From: Candidatus Omnitrophota bacterium
Lineage (GTDB): Bacteria > Omnitrophota > Gorgyraeia > JABMRN01 > RBG-13-46-9
NCBI GenBank assembly: GCA_016782495.1
Contig: JADHYL010000001.1
Coordinates: 34,360-98,359, forward strand
Direction of reading: 5' to 3'
DNA: 64,000 nucleotides
Numbering within the stretch: the stretch's first letter is position 1; each line of letters starts with the position of its first letter. Below, piece by piece: positions 21,699-29,845 of this stretch. The notes under the pieces are model-generated. The model searched no databases. It saw only the letters and a list, made by a program, of their open reading frames with translations, and was not told where the DNA came from. The position numbers were made by a program, and so were the translations under genes.

Positions 21699-22031
21699 TT
21701 ATAGCGTGTGGTTTCCTCCCTCGCTGCAAGTCGGATCGGCACTTACCGCACCTATGGTGTATGCTGTACTTGTGCCTACCGGACATGCTGGAGTTCTCTT
21801 GATGTAATTCGGAGTCAAGTCTGACCAAGCGGGTGTGTCCGTGTCGGATTTACCGATATCAAGCGCCCATACCTGTTTTGCGCCGTCAATCTGTTTTAGA
21901 TTGGCGATGCAGGCATTTTCTTGCGCCTGTGTCCTTGCTCTCACGAAGTTGGGAATGGCGATGGCCGCTAATAAACCTATAATTGCAACAACTATCATAA
22001 TTTCAACCAGCGTAAAACCCCTTTTCTTCAT
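21699..22031 (-). CDS. Type IV major pilin or pseudopilin, 110 aa.
   Basis: MKKRGFTLVEIMIVVAIIGLLAAIAIPNF is a canonical prepilin leader plus N-terminal alpha-helix. The NACIANLKQIDGAKQVWALD segment is common in PVC-type pilins. Ribosome-binding site GGGGGTGA. Strong terminator downstream. Confidence 0.9.
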   Translation of the reverse strand: MKKRGFTLVEIMIVVAIIGLLAAIAIPNFVRARTQAQENACIANLKQIDGAKQVWALDIGKSDTDTPAWSDLTPNYIKRTPACPVGTSTAYTIGAVSADPTCSEGGNHTL

Positions 22032-22172
22032 CTTTTTCTCACCCCCTTTTCTTCCCTTTTAGGCCAGAGACGCCTCTTGCGGGGATTAAGCTTTTCTCTT
22101 CCCACAAAAGGCATTTTTGGGATACCATATAAGTATAACATACAAAATCGGCATTGTCAAGGTAGGCCCATT

Positions 22173-23393
22173 TTAAGTATTTATCACCTGGGAAATCTGC
22201 AATATGGGCATGAACATACATATAACTATACCGCCTATAACAATACCTAAAAAAGCTATTATAAGCGGCTCGATAAGGCTCGTTAATCCGCTTACGGCCG
22301 CATCCACCTGTTCATCGTAAAAATCCGCTATTTTTGACAGCATCTTTTCGAGCTCCCCCGTCTGCTCCCCCACCGAAATCATCCTGACCACCATGGGCGG
22401 AAATACACCGCTTCTTGCCAGCGGATCGGCAATAGACTCCCCTTCCCTGACATTGGCGGCCACCCTGTCAACCGCCTTTTCTATGATGCGATTTCCGGCG
22501 GTTTTACTTACAATATCGAGCGAATTCAGGATGGGAACCCCGCTTTTTATAAGGGTTGAAAGGGTTCTGGTAAACTTTCCCACAGCTACCTTTCGAAGCA
22601 ATATCCCGAATATGGGTAGGTGAAGTTTCAGGCTGTCGACTTTAACCTTTCCGTTTTCTGTTTTAGTATACCTGTTGATCGCAAAGCCAATTACAGCCAT
22701 AAAAATGATGGTGATATAAAAATATTTCCTCAAAAAATCGCTTACATTGATCATGATCTGCGTAGGTAGAGGCAAGGTTGCCCCAAAACCCGAATATATG
22801 TCCTTAAATACCGGAACGACTTTTATCATTAAAAAGACAGTTATTGCAATCGCCATAATGGTCACGGCTGCAGGATATACAAGCGCCGCTTTTATTTTCC
22901 TCTGTAGGCTACTTGTCTTTTCAAGATACATCGCAACCCTGTCCAGAATTTCGTCCAGCATACCGCTGGATTCGCCTGCCTTTACCAGATTTATAAAAAG
23001 GCCGGAAAACACCCCTGCGTGTTTTGAAAGCGCCTCGGACAGGCTTGAACCCGTCTCTACGTCGTCACGGATCCTGGAAACAACCTGTTTAAACGACATG
23101 TTTTCGGTCTGCTCAGCCAGAATATCCAGCGCATTAACCAGCGGAATACCTGCGTCAACCATGGTGGCAAGCTGCCTGGAGAATATGACAAGGTCGTCGA
23201 TCTTTACCCTCTGCCCTTTTTTGCCTTTAAAAATACCGAGGGAAAATACGGCACTTTTTTCTTCTTCGAGCGAGATGATAAAAAAGCCCTTTTCTCTTAA
23301 AGATTGAACGGCGGTATTTCTGGAATCCGCCTCGAGTGTCCCTTTTAATGTTTTTCCGGCGGTATCTTTGACCGTGTATTTAAATTTTGCCAT
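22173..23393 (-). CDS. pilC: Type IV pilus inner-membrane platform protein PilC/GspF.
   Basis: 406 aa with two T2SSF-type repeats (LATMVDAGIPLVNALDIL...; LSTLIKSGVPILNSLDIV...). Confidence 0.9.
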   Translation of the reverse strand: MAKFKYTVKDTAGKTLKGTLEADSRNTAVQSLREKGFFIISLEEEKSAVFSLGIFKGKKGQRVKIDDLVIFSRQLATMVDAGIPLVNALDILAEQTENMSFKQVVSRIRDDVETGSSLSEALSKHAGVFSGLFINLVKAGESSGMLDEILDRVAMYLEKTSSLQRKIKAALVYPAAVTIMAIAITVFLMIKVVPVFKDIYSGFGATLPLPTQIMINVSDFLRKYFYITIIFMAVIGFAINRYTKTENGKVKVDSLKLHLPIFGILLRKVAVGKFTRTLSTLIKSGVPILNSLDIVSKTAGNRIIEKAVDRVAANVREGESIADPLARSGVFPPMVVRMISVGEQTGELEKMLSKIADFYDEQVDAAVSGLTSLIEPLIIAFLGIVIGGIVICMFMPILQISQVINT

Positions 23394-23397
23394 AATC

Positions 23398-27339: not shown

Positions 27340-27342
27340 GCC

Positions 27343-28413
27343 CTATCCTTCTCTCCTGATTAGTTTGCGAAGCTCATCGGGATTTGTCGATTTCTGCAGA
27401 CACACCTCTGGGGTTACAGCGCCTTTGTTGTAGAGATCCGCCAGCGATTGGTTCATCGTTTTCATCCCGTCTTTCTGTGAAGTTTGTATGACCGAATATA
27501 TCTGGTGAACCTTGCTCTCGCGAATCAAGCTCCTTACAGCAGGTGTTGCCACGAGGACTTCGGTGGCAAGTACCCTGCCCGATTCCCCGGCCTTCGGCAA
27601 TAACTGTTGCGAAACTATGGCAAGGAGCACGAACGAAAGTTGCGTCTTTATCTGCTGCTGCTGGTGGGCGGGAAACACGTCAATAACCCTGTTGACGGTT
27701 TGCACGGCGTCAGAGGTATGCAGGGTGGCGAAAACGAGATGCCCCGTTTCAGCGATTATCAAAGCGCTTTCTATGGTTTCCAGGTCTCTCATCTCGCCGA
27801 TCAGGATGACGTCGGGGTCCTGTCGTAAGACGTGTTTTAAGGAATCGCCGAACGAATGCGTATCCGTGTAGACCTCTCGCTGTTCCACAAGGGCTTTTTT
27901 GTTTTTGTGCACGAATTCTATAGGATCTTCGATGGTTACGATGTGGCACTGGCTGTGGTCATTTATATAGTCTACCATCGAGGCAAGTGTCGTAGATTTT
28001 CCGCTTCCTGTCGCTCCAGTAACCAATACAAGCCCCTTTGGCTTATTACAGAGTTCCGTTACGATGTCGACAGGGAGCCCGCATTGTTCGAAATTTAAAA
28101 TATCAAAAGGAATAAGCCTTATTGCGCAACCAACCGATCCTCTCTGATAAAAGATGTTAACCCTGAATCGGGCCACATTTTTAACCTCGAAAGAAAAATC
28201 CAGCTCCCAGTCTTTCTCAAACTGCTTTATCTGTTCCGGGCTTAACAAGGCGTAGGAAGCTTGCTTTGTTTCCTCTGCGTTTAAGGGTGACTTTCCGATC
28301 GGATAAAGCTTTTCGTCAATTCTTAAATGGATCGGCGAATTCGTCGTGATGTGCATGTCAGAAGCATTCTTTTCCAGCATCATCTTTAACAAACCCTTTA
28401 TATCTATTCCCAT
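27343..28413 (-). CDS. pilT: Twitching-motility retraction ATPase PilT.
   Basis: 356 aa. Walker A VLVTGATGSGKSTTLASM, plus PilT-specific segments (VNIFYQRG, AHQQQQIKTQLS). Confidence 0.9.
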   Translation of the reverse strand: MGIDIKGLLKMMLEKNASDMHITTNSPIHLRIDEKLYPIGKSPLNAEETKQASYALLSPEQIKQFEKDWELDFSFEVKNVARFRVNIFYQRGSVGCAIRLIPFDILNFEQCGLPVDIVTELCNKPKGLVLVTGATGSGKSTTLASMVDYINDHSQCHIVTIEDPIEFVHKNKKALVEQREVYTDTHSFGDSLKHVLRQDPDVILIGEMRDLETIESALIIAETGHLVFATLHTSDAVQTVNRVIDVFPAHQQQQIKTQLSFVLLAIVSQQLLPKAGESGRVLATEVLVATPAVRSLIRESKVHQIYSVIQTSQKDGMKTMNQSLADLYNKGAVTPEVCLQKSTNPDELRKLIRREG

Positions 28414-28414
28414 A

Positions 28415-29845
28415 TTATACCCCTGCTCCTATTATTTTATTTTTTCCTTCTTCTTTGGCTTTGCCAAGCGCCGCTTGGGCCTTCTCCAAGATTTCGTTCG
28501 CGGTTGGCCCGTCAAGCGGGTTTTCGCTTACCCCGCAACTTACGGTTAGCGTATTGCCTTTTTCTTCGGATAATTGCATCTTTTCGACTCGCTTCCTGAT
28601 CTTTTCCGCAATTTGCAAGACAGCTTTTTTATTTACTTCTGGCATGATCAATGCAAAGAGATCCTTGTCAAACCTGCCGGCTTTTCCCAGCGGACCGGAA
28701 AGCTCCGTTATGAGGTGGCCGATCTTTTTCAGTGCGACCGCCGCCTGTGCCTTGCCCTTTTCGGTCTCGTATTTTTTGAAGTCATCGATATCCAGCAGGA
28801 TAAAGGAGCACGGCCTGTGAGAAATAAAGGAACGTTGTATTTCCTCATTTAGACGCCTTTTCATAAAATCCTTGTTGAACAAGCCCGTAAGCTGGTCCTT
28901 TATTTGCAGCTTTTCGGCCGTTTTCATCAGAACGTCGTTTTCGATGGCGATCGCGATCTGCTCTGTAAAAACCTTTATTATTTCCACATCGTCATTTGTA
29001 TATGTAAAGTTCTTTATCCCGTTGCCTGTGACGAGCAGGGCCTTCACATCCCTGATGGTAAACAATGGAAAGATTACTATGTTCTCGCATTTGTATTTTT
29101 CTTTAAATTCCTGGTTTTCGCGTGAGAACTTGGAGGAAGCGTCCATTACGATATGTTTTTTCTTCAGCATGGCCTTGCCCAGGAGCCCGCTTCCGCTCTC
29201 GATGGTCGCTGTTAAAAGATTTTCATTGACCAGGTTTTGAGACAGTCGCACGGTAAGCGGCTTGTCCGGCTCATCGGAAAAATAGAGCGCTGCAAATCCG
29301 CCGTCGTAAAGCTGGGCTATTTTAAGAAGTACTATCTCGATAATGCTGTCTAATTTGACGGACGAGGATATAAGCTCCCCTATTTGCAGGACATTGGATA
29401 AAACGGAAACCCTCTTTTGTATTTCCGCGTTTATCTCCTTCATCTTCTCCTGGTAATCCTTGAGATCCATTATGTTATCCCTGATTTTCTTTGTTAAGAA
29501 GTTTATCGCCTCACCAATTTCACCGATTTCGTCTTCAGTCCCAACGGGAACCTTTCTTTCAAAATTTCCCTCTCTGATGATTTTGGTCTCGAGGGCAACG
29601 TCTATAACGCGCTCGACAATTCCTTTTGCAAGAAATAGCCCCAGCCAGGCGATCGCGATGGAGAAAAGAACCATCGTGCTTATCTGGCCGAGCGAAATCT
29701 CCCCGTCAAATAATATGAAATTGTTTACTATGTACCCGATAACAAGGAGCGGTATTACCGACATTAAGCTAAACGCTATCAATAATTTATAGCGTAGCCC
29801 ATAGGGCAAAAGCGAAAGTCTCTTTAAAAAACTTTTTTCTTTCAT
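28415..29845 (-). CDS. Membrane-anchored HAMP-GAF-GGDEF-like protein with a degenerate GGDEF site. Putative regulator.
   Basis: Two N-terminal transmembrane helices and a HAMP-like linker, then a GAF-like middle region. The C-terminal GGDEF fold starts KDQLTGLFNKDF...ILLDIDDFK, but the signature motif reads AGRFDKDLFALIMPE where RYGG(D/E)EFxxLLP is expected. Confidence 0.7.
   Translation of the reverse strand: MKEKSFLKRLSLLPYGLRYKLLIAFSLMSVIPLLVIGYIVNNFILFDGEISLGQISTMVLFSIAIAWLGLFLAKGIVERVIDVALETKIIREGNFERKVPVGTEDEIGEIGEAINFLTKKIRDNIMDLKDYQEKMKEINAEIQKRVSVLSNVLQIGELISSSVKLDSIIEIVLLKIAQLYDGGFAALYFSDEPDKPLTVRLSQNLVNENLLTATIESGSGLLGKAMLKKKHIVMDASSKFSRENQEFKEKYKCENIVIFPLFTIRDVKALLVTGNGIKNFTYTNDDVEIIKVFTEQIAIAIENDVLMKTAEKLQIKDQLTGLFNKDFMKRRLNEEIQRSFISHRPCSFILLDIDDFKKYETEKGKAQAAVALKKIGHLITELSGPLGKAGRFDKDLFALIMPEVNKKAVLQIAEKIRKRVEKMQLSEEKGNTLTVSCGVSENPLDGPTANEILEKAQAALGKAKEEGKNKIIGAGV

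Follow-up and report, generated by a model that had tools for sequence, protein, structure and literature searches.

A conserved type IVa pilus motor operon of Omnitrophota encodes two sister PilB paralogues and a free MshEN protein, a putative c-di-GMP receptor

Omnitrophota are uncultured, ultra-small, and widespread bacteria, in which type IV pili are considered a central element of a host-attached or predatory lifestyle. To our knowledge, their pilus motor has hitherto been scored only as 'type IVa pilus (T4aP) present'. Here, we analyzed a stretch of 64,000 nucleotides (nt) from a Candidatus Omnitrophota bacterium (GenBank assembly GCA_016782495.1, contig JADHYL010000001.1, positions 34,360 to 98,359), the whole of which is called the window below, with emphasis on a minus-strand gene group at positions 21699-29845. 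Annotation by means of Pfam and NCBIfam revealed seven open reading frames (ORFs) encoding, in the order of transcription, a HAMP-GAF-GGDEF-like membrane protein, the retraction ATPase PilT, a free MshEN (GSPII) protein, two paralogous extension ATPases referred to as PilB-a and PilB-b, the platform protein PilC, and a prepilin (Table 1). This motor module was found to be the norm in the phylum; its two PilBs appear to be sister paralogues with reciprocal losses of a conserved histidine, and its free MshEN protein is a putative receptor for cyclic di-GMP (c-di-GMP), probably acting in trans on PilB.

Matches in Pfam or NCBIfam upheld the domain calls of the original prediction, a reading of the sequence made without database searches, for all seven proteins. 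The first of them carries two N-terminal hydrophobic transmembrane (TM) helices ahead of its HAMP domain, and its GGDEF domain matched PF00990 with 100.5 bits. PilT possesses the motif AVRSLIRE, similar to AIRNLIRE, and no N1 domain. The six motor genes are separated by 1, 3, 2, 10, and 4 nt, so that the predicted compact operon stands, and 141 nt lie between the PilC and prepilin genes. Of the single promoter that had been proposed for the operon, the site itself was recovered, though a region-wide scan resulted in 18 such sites compared to 14.2 ± 4.1 expected by chance from shuffled sequences, i.e., no excess, so that it can be regarded as a plausible candidate only. Furthermore, no terminator was seen between rodA, located 108 nt upstream, and the operon; read-through from rodA is therefore possible. 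A second promoter-like site (11/12) overlaps the candidate on the plus strand (29916-29943) and is not followed by a credible plus-strand gene. As predicted, the pilin gene has its own terminator, a hairpin for which 0 of 200 shuffled sequences were equally stable. The remainder of the T4aP machine is encoded downstream on the same strand, namely pilM, a probable pilN, pilO, a secretin gene, and three further prepilin-like genes.

Table 1. Features of the pilus gene cluster (positions within the window; aa, amino acids).
Feature	Position	Strand	Details
Candidate sigma-70-like operon promoter	29909-29937	-	TTGACA-17-TATACT, 11/12; inside the 108-nt rodA-GGDEF spacer
HAMP-GAF-GGDEF-like membrane protein	28415-29845	-	476 aa; HAMP 71-122, GAF 165-302, GGDEF 316-470
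PilT, retraction ATPase	27343-28413	-	356 aa; TIGR01420 489.3 bits (cutoff 319.1)
Free MshEN/GSPII protein	26884-27339	-	151 aa; sole domain MshEN, PF05157 69.5 bits (cutoff 23.1)
PilB-a, extension ATPase paralogue 1	25142-26881	-	579 aa; MshEN and T2SSE; TIGR02538 644.7 bits
PilB-b, extension ATPase paralogue 2	23398-25131	-	577 aa; MshEN and T2SSE; TIGR02538 632.2 bits
PilC, platform protein	22173-23393	-	406 aa; two T2SSF repeats; top NCBIfam models PilC
Promoter-like site for pilin gene	22132-22160	-	TTGACA-17-TATACT, 11/12, with extended -10 TG
Prepilin	21699-22031	-	110 aa; N_methyl/TIGR02532; class III signal KKRG/FTLVEIM (slash, cleavage site)
Intrinsic terminator 3' of pilin gene	21645-21685	-	14-bp stem and U7, -20.3 kcal/mol, z = -4.82
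pilM	17714-18733	-	PilM_2
Probable pilN	17039-17713	-	by position alone; no Pfam match
pilO	16430-17038	-	PilO
Secretin	14407-16059	-	Secretin/Secretin_N/STN
Prepilin-like ORF	12503-12934	-	143 aa; GITLVE
'Giant' prepilin-like protein	10351-12534	-	715-727 aa; GMTLIE; no Pfam match
PilX_N protein	9182-10354	-	

Scanning GTDB with one genome for each species yielded 72 loci, 69 of them from Omnitrophota, which were annotated using the window proteins. Gene presence was called by an automatic filter at those loci whose contigs were long enough to be assessed. In nearly all of the assessable Omnitrophota loci, the genes for the GGDEF-like protein, PilT, MshEN, PilB-a, PilB-b, PilC, and one to three pilins occur in this order, usually preceded by mreBCD-pbp2-rodA as in the window. 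PilB-b was present in 56/56 loci and followed by PilC in 50/50. PilT was found directly upstream of MshEN in 53 of 60 loci, three of the seven misses still keeping pilT in the order, and the GGDEF-like gene was called in 52 of 55, one of the three misses (L068) still harboring it. Since about 69 independent species genomes of Omnitrophota share this order, for which the original prediction had suggested searching related genomes, the arrangement is far beyond chance, and the motor module is a phylum-wide norm and no oddity of the window genome. At three of the more deviant loci, L073, L075, and L077, the identities of MreB, RodA, and PBP2 lie at the edge of the Omnitrophota range or just beyond it. 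Across 39 complete loci, mean identity to the window protein was 65.7% for MshEN and 65.6% for PilT, followed by PilC (59.2%), PilB-b (59.1%), and PilB-a (58.8%), with the GGDEF-like protein being the least conserved (41.6%). Within the operon, the free MshEN gene thus shares the highest level of constraint with pilT.

The two PilBs share 49% identity and the same architecture (N1, N2D, and C-terminal domain), with MshEN at about residues 64-154 and T2SSE at about 185-572. TIGR02538 is the best family for both of them, while the GspE model gave 591 and 598 bits, below its own cutoff. Their top relatives in the PDB are the PilBs of Geobacter and Myxococcus with 536-561 bits versus 391-403 bits for GspE/EpsE, the best scores being 553 bits for PilB-a (Geobacter) and 558-561 bits for PilB-b (Myxococcus and Geobacter). 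Both are found alongside pilC, pilT, pilM/N/O, a secretin gene, and prepilin genes. Walker A, the Asp box, the atypical Walker B with the catalytic Glu, the His box, and a tetracysteine Zn site are kept in 66 PilB-a and 59 PilB-b orthologues with two exceptions, namely the first His of the His box, which is changed to Gln in PilB-b, and the His of the N2D motif 'ASDIH', changed to Leu in PilB-a. Both enzymes are predicted to be catalytically competent.

In a neighbor-joining tree of 130 sequences (100 bootstraps), PilB-a and PilB-b each formed a monophyletic group (bootstrap 99 and 100, respectively), and together they excluded GspE and HofB of E. coli, the PilB of Obscuribacter, and two tandem pairs from Planctomycetota (92). 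The single PilB of locus L075 was placed outside both subclades (98). This topology argues for an old duplication internal to the lineage, and on sequence grounds PilB-a and PilB-b are sister paralogues derived from one ancient tandem duplication. A possibility named by the original prediction, that the two ATPases belong to clearly different known families, was thus not borne out, both being T4aP PilBs. In particular, an assignment of one of them as the GspE of a type II secretion system (T2SS) was ruled out by the scores of the hidden Markov models, the PDB scores, and the tree, and an assignment as TfpB by NF053534 (458.8 and 461.9 bits, cutoff 850) together with the sister position of the pair. 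Tandem PilB pairs beside PilC also occur in the Planctomycetota/Phycisphaerales loci L070 (5774-9700) and L071 (4895-9700), which are devoid of a free MshEN gene; since these pairs fall into separate paralogue clades, their duplication was independent.

The two exceptions in the motifs were also the striking members of a short list resulting from a screen for residues altered in one paralogue but invariant in the other as well as in the outgroups. At position 211 of PilB-a, the His of 'ASDIH' is replaced by Leu in 61 of 64 sequences, by Phe in two, and by Met in one, and His was never found. In PilB-b, Gln replaces His420, the first His of the His box, in 49/54 sequences, with His in three and Glu in two, and the divergent second copies in L073 and L077 carry Thr and Glu at this position. 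Both histidines are kept in the single PilB of L075, in both copies of the Planctomycetota pairs, and in all other outgroups, the reciprocal losses arising solely after the duplication. In the PilB of Geobacter, the first His of the His box (H413) and H420 flank T411, a residue in contact with the adjacent packing unit exclusively when the interface is closed and nucleotide-bound (PMC5424180). In PilT, contacts specific to the closed interface are made by the Asp of the ASD-x-H motif (10.1101/672212). From these roles we infer that both His changes affect elements coupling the nucleotide state to closure between subunits. The reciprocal losses can be read as a signature of sub-functionalization after duplication, which is compatible with a mixed ring as well as with two rings working in turn and does not distinguish between them. 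A reading as three intact and three dead sites was dropped because the N2D element, by homology, closes on the nucleotide of its own chain, resulting in one change per site. In addition, a phylogeny-controlled mirror-tree comparison of distance matrices, which is exploratory, lacks a valid significance test, and is taken as a hint only, grouped PilB-a, PilB-b, and PilC (partial r 0.52-0.70), hinting that both PilBs engage the same PilC platform.

The free MshEN protein of the window is 100% identical to a protein of a Candidatus Omnitrophica metagenome-assembled genome (MAG) and has 3730 homologues. The best 120 clusters, from independent assemblies, comprise 146-221 aa (most of them 149-152 aa) with 58-87% identity. 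Thus, the 151-aa ORF, which the original prediction had considered a possible pseudogene fragment, is a conserved free-standing gene of about 150 aa throughout Omnitrophota. To the N1 domains of the two neighboring PilBs it shows only 31% identity. Against NF053729, the NCBIfam model for the c-di-GMP motif (cutoff 38), it scored 60.6 bits compared to 37.8 and 44.2 bits for the N1 domains of PilB-a and PilB-b, respectively. In MshE of Vibrio cholerae, c-di-GMP is contacted by G11, G18, Q32, G40, G47, and Q61 (PMC5013675), the counterparts of which are G13, G20, Q34, G42, G49, and Q63. Among 69 orthologues, G13, Q34, G42, and Q63 are kept in 68-69 and G49 in 64, and position 20 is Gly in 46 and Lys in 18. 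The tandem hG-x20-Q core was detected in 68/69 free MshEN proteins but in 0/66 PilB-a and 0/59 PilB-b sequences, in the attached N1 domains of which the contact positions are substituted and poorly conserved. As to the first residues of the two motifs, motif 2 starts with Leu in 67/69 orthologues, which fits the consensus since widened to (R/K/L)LG... (PMC11731258), and motif 1 with Gln in 37, Thr in 15, and Lys in nine of the 69. In this respect, GSPII-B of Thermus PilF, which has Lys and Leu as these first residues, binds c-di-GMP with a dissociation constant of 6 nM, and its K167L mutant with one of 2 nM (PMC11731258).

An AlphaFold2 model of the free protein (predicted local distance difference test score 84.5) confirmed the MshEN fold, i.e., a four-helix bundle and an alpha/beta subdomain. 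The best PDB match was 5HTL, the N-terminal domain of MshE with c-di-GMP (E = 8.8e-13, TM-scores 0.79/0.85, root-mean-square deviation 2.2 Å), with further matches to PilB-N with PilZ (7LKM-7LKO) and EpsE-N with EpsL. In Omnitrophota variants of about 215 aa (P0067, P0071, P0077, P0081, and P0119), the N-terminal four-helix ligand-binding half alone is duplicated, so that the 24-residue motif is present four times and two c-di-GMP sites are conceivable. Locus L067, which has neither the GGDEF-like gene nor pilT upstream, harbors an additional free MshEN gene (8712-9160; 149 aa, 45% identity) between PilB-b and PilC. An extra paralogue of 154 aa was identified in the Omnitrophica MAG locus L082 (7001-7465) in a non-pilus context among genes for polysaccharide and lipid modification; free MshEN proteins may thus serve other outputs besides pili.

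The GGDEF domain encoded at the start of the operon had been called degenerate, and this was confirmed in every respect. Its active-site motif is DKDLF instead of GG[DE]EF, the equivalents of the guanine-binding residues N335 and D344 of PleD are Glu and Ala, and the I-site position reads GPLG with no RxxD. Judged by these residues, the window protein is predicted to be unable to make c-di-GMP and to have no known site to bind it. The same seems to hold for the family, since 52 orthologues revealed GG[DE]EF in 5/52 and neither the guanine-binding Asn nor RxxD in any (0/52 each), suggesting a domain that is catalytically dead family-wide. The protein is most likely a surviving sensor or scaffold.

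Some deep-branching relatives differ in exactly this part. L075 and L081 harbor rodA, a 304-aa TM-HAMP-GGDEF protein with intact GGDEF, RxxD, and Asn, a free MshEN gene, a single PilB gene, and genes for PilC, PilS, and PilR. In L083, a canonical AGDEF cyclase is encoded upstream of the free MshEN protein, followed by two T2SSE ATPases, one lacking a four-helix subdomain of its own. Thus, canonical GGDEF/AGDEF cyclases with RxxD lie directly upstream of free MshEN and PilB in L075, L081, and L083. L073 has no GGDEF gene and carries an intact HD-GYP protein between PilB-b and PilC, L077 has a receiver domain upstream of MshEN, and L078 has kept TM-HAMP-GAF alone. Homology between the window protein and the L075 cyclase covers the TM-HAMP end and the GGDEF end, which in the window protein are separated by an inserted GAF domain. 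Altogether, MshEN-PilB(-PilB)-PilC is the invariant core, and the upstream gene is a variable signaling input, originally a local cyclase. The recurrence of cyclase and HD-GYP neighbors is the main independent argument for the free MshEN protein as a c-di-GMP receptor. Locus L083 (3003-10222) was found on a metagenome contig and consists of a 1333-aa AGDEF cyclase, a 142-aa free MshEN protein, a 397-aa T2SSE ATPase without N1 but with a PilB-a-like 'ASDIL', and, as its last gene, a 530-aa PilB without the four-helix subdomain for c-di-GMP. This arrangement resembles an 'outsourced receptor' in a more extreme form.

Based on these results, we favor, with moderate confidence, an explanation of the operon as a phylum-conserved T4aP motor with two cooperating PilBs and the free MshEN protein as a c-di-GMP receptor in trans. 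In extension, PilB-a and PilB-b, being sub-functionalized, would both act on the single PilC, either co-assembled or in succession. Their fused N1 domains would have lost the receptor function yet kept the docking fold, the former having moved to the 151-aa protein encoded immediately upstream. This protein would bind c-di-GMP or a close analogue and then act in trans on the PilB motor or its docking site. The HAMP-GAF-GGDEF protein would descend from a local diguanylate cyclase and, enzymatically dead here and in most of the phylum, serve as a membrane- and GAF-linked sensor or scaffold. A bolder version, which is possible though doubtful, proposes an obligate hetero-oligomeric motor of PilB-a and PilB-b, e.g., an alternating a3b3 ring, with asymmetric closure interfaces resulting from the reciprocal losses of the N2D and His-box histidines, and gated in trans by detached, c-di-GMP-loaded MshEN in place of the decayed receptor function of the fused N1 domains. 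If true, it would mark the first case of a heteromeric PilT-like secretion ATPase as well as of a 'split' MshE-type receptor.

Several points weigh against the favored explanation. Neither PilB reaches the equivalog cutoff of TIGR02538 (675.65 bits), and the tree relies on neighbor-joining alone with a thin outgroup sample of seven sequences. The structural role of the N2D His is deduced from the neighboring Asp of PilT, two residues earlier, which was the sole lead, as no published role for the His of 'ASDIH' was found. Motif 1 of the window protein starts with Gln, outside the validated R/K/L set, and GSPII-A of Thermus, though near-consensus, fails to bind c-di-GMP (PMC12002112). Finally, the adjacent GGDEF domain is catalytically dead, and the 64-kb window revealed neither an active cyclase or phosphodiesterase nor PilZ or a c-di-GMP riboswitch. 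More precisely, none of the other window ORFs of at least 150 aa encodes a c-di-GMP enzyme or PilZ, no frame contains a GG[DE]EF, HD-GYP, or PilZ motif, and a search of the whole window against Rfam at gathering thresholds revealed no RNA element.

Alternatively, the free MshEN protein could be a ligand-free structural adaptor or decoy that mimics the N1 domain of PilB and either fills the N1 docking site on the PilM/PilN/PilC platform or bridges to it, the conservation of its motifs reflecting fold stability. Most orthologues indeed start motif 1 with a residue other than R, K, or L, a near-consensus domain like GSPII-A can fail to bind, and the adjacent GGDEF domain is dead throughout the two-PilB clade; moreover, N1 domains are known protein-docking modules, as in the PilB-N/PilZ and EpsE-N/EpsL structures matched by our model. 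We nevertheless consider such an adaptor unlikely, as the six contact Gly and Gln residues are near-invariant in the free protein, whereas the same positions have degenerated in the attached N1 domains despite their retained fold. Moreover, the variants of about 215 aa duplicate the ligand-binding half alone, and active cyclases or HD-GYP proteins recur beside free MshEN genes.

The original prediction had read the GGDEF sensor, the free MshEN protein, and the two PilBs as a c-di-GMP-responsive switch, selecting one of two assembly ATPases or between extension and retraction. With no more than 10 nt between genes, all these parts could be transcribed together, the free MshEN gene lies between pilT and the pilB genes in most loci, and in the exploratory mirror-tree comparison the GGDEF-like protein co-varied most with PilT (partial r 0.53) and MshEN (0.37). 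Such a switch is nevertheless distinctly unlikely, since free MshEN and GGDEF genes also occur with a single PilB (L075, L081), and free MshEN also without an adjacent pilT (L027, L050, L068, L073, and L077); its role is therefore not tied to two motors or to an adjacent retraction motor. In addition, the same comparison gave no preferential co-variation of MshEN with either PilB (0.02 and 0.22). The c-di-GMP link as such is plausible. The GGDEF protein, being dead, cannot be the source of c-di-GMP here and lacks an I-site with which to bind it.

We regard it as very improbable that the two PilBs drive separate outputs without cooperating, i.e., two pilin sets or a pilus and T2SS-like secretion. 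There are several prepilin-like genes in the window and two to three pilin genes at many loci, and elsewhere multiple PilB homologues usually serve separate machines (PMC11656802). On the other hand, PilC, the PilM/N/O set, and the secretin are each encoded only once in the cluster, and the scores of both ATPases for T4aP PilB are far higher than for GspE. Furthermore, the two are strictly paired and adjacent in all 56 loci, and both co-vary with the single PilC in the exploratory comparison. Finally, the 151-aa ORF is homologous to the N-terminus of PilB, but its origin as a fragment of a third pilB or as an assembly or annotation artefact has a negligible probability and was ruled out by its thousands of homologues of mostly uniform length in independent assemblies, a conservation like that of PilT, its divergence from the adjoining N1 domains, and its confident fold.

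The literature searched contained no published description of this motor module, in agreement with the claim of the original prediction that it is undescribed. Seymour et al. (2023) found T4aP genes in nearly all Omnitrophota and do not mention a duplicated PilB, a free MshEN protein, or a GGDEF gene, and the same is true of a 2026 complete-genome preprint on the phylum; genes for the 'symbiotic' F-type ATPase, which Seymour et al. associated with T4aP, were not found in the window. A review of PilB from 2024 treats multiple PilBs mainly via PilB and TfpB of Acinetobacter baylyi and poses heteromer formation as an open question (PMC11656802). The paper describing MshEN lists many domain fusions, with neither 'stand-alone' nor 'standalone' in its text (PMC5013675).

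Regarding known systems, A. baylyi likewise combines two extension-type ATPases on one T4aP machine with a small motor-targeting protein, the inhibitor CpiA (PMC8213720; PMC11656802). TfpB is phylogenetically distinct and encoded elsewhere, whereas the Omnitrophota pair consists of adjacent sister paralogues, and CpiA has no known fold and is strain-specific, in contrast to an MshEN domain conserved phylum-wide. With MshE of V. cholerae, PilB of Myxococcus xanthus, and PilF of Thermus thermophilus, the free protein shares the MshEN domain, its fold (5HTL, TM-score of about 0.8), and the tandem 24-residue motif core, and with GSPII-B of PilF also the Leu at the start of motif 2. In those proteins, however, receptor and ATPase form one chain, while the Omnitrophota operon encodes the putative receptor on its own and the motif has been lost from the N1 domains that are still fused; also, motif 1 starts with Gln or Thr in most free orthologues. 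In the FimX-PilZ-PilB system of Xanthomonas and Pseudomonas, a degenerate GGDEF protein and a small adaptor similarly act via the N-terminal domain of PilB, with c-di-GMP in trans. Unlike there, neither the operon nor any window ORF of 150 aa or more encodes an EAL or PilZ domain, the putative receptor is of the MshEN type, and the GGDEF protein is membrane-bound with HAMP and GAF domains. PilT/PilU are also tandem PilT-like paralogues acting jointly on one machine, one dependent on the other, but they are retraction motors and not a duplicated extension ATPase with reciprocal His losses. The pilB-pilT-pilC(-pilS-pilR)-pilA operons of Myxococcus and Geobacter possess the same core genes and the closest PilB relatives (553-561 bits), and the single-PilB loci L075 and L081 have even retained pilS and pilR; Omnitrophota add a PilB paralogue, the free MshEN gene, and the upstream GGDEF-derived gene. 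Thus, all parts are from known families, while the split-off putative receptor, the pair of extension ATPases that are sister paralogues with reciprocally altered interfaces, and their phylum-wide fixation are undescribed in the literature searched.

Further genes were identified in the window. The three prepilin-like genes (minus strand, 9182-12934) lie downstream of those for RNase G and the secretin and probably encode a set of minor pilins or tip adhesins. About 130 nt at the 3' end of the secretin ORF (14407-14540) are shared with the ORF of RNase G (12915-14540), which has a TTG start; since the RNase_E_G domain begins only at residue 177, the true start of the RNase G gene is probably further downstream. 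The genes between that of the pilin and pilM (minus strand, 18810-21620) encode a GT2 glycosyltransferase and a multi-TM protein of 678 aa with TPR repeats at its C-terminus, two proteins that may work as a pair in glycosylating the pilin. Homologues of the TPR membrane protein are encoded after the pilin gene at many of the related loci (e.g., L004, L005, and L073). A complete dcw cluster (mraW ... murB, ddl, ftsQ, ftsA) occupies 46969-63501 on the minus strand, directly followed by a YggS-like gene; ftsZ is absent after ftsA, and the tubulin signature GGGTG[ST]G was found in no frame of the window. All credible genes of the window lie on the minus strand, and the GC skew is negative in all 2-kb bins except one, which indicates one long co-oriented stretch of the core genome.

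Altogether, the standard motor of this phylum departs from the textbook in three respects, namely a conserved sister pair of extension ATPases with complementary changes at invariant interface residues, a putative c-di-GMP receptor domain present as a separate polypeptide, and a local cyclase decayed to a sensor-like relic. It thus offers a natural system for two questions of the field, namely the cooperation of two extension ATPases on a single platform and the function of the N1/MshEN domain of PilB, the ligand-binding and docking roles of which are apparently divided between proteins in Omnitrophota. Since the parts can be described as small soluble proteins and are heterologously expressible, cultivation of these bacteria would be unnecessary for such work.

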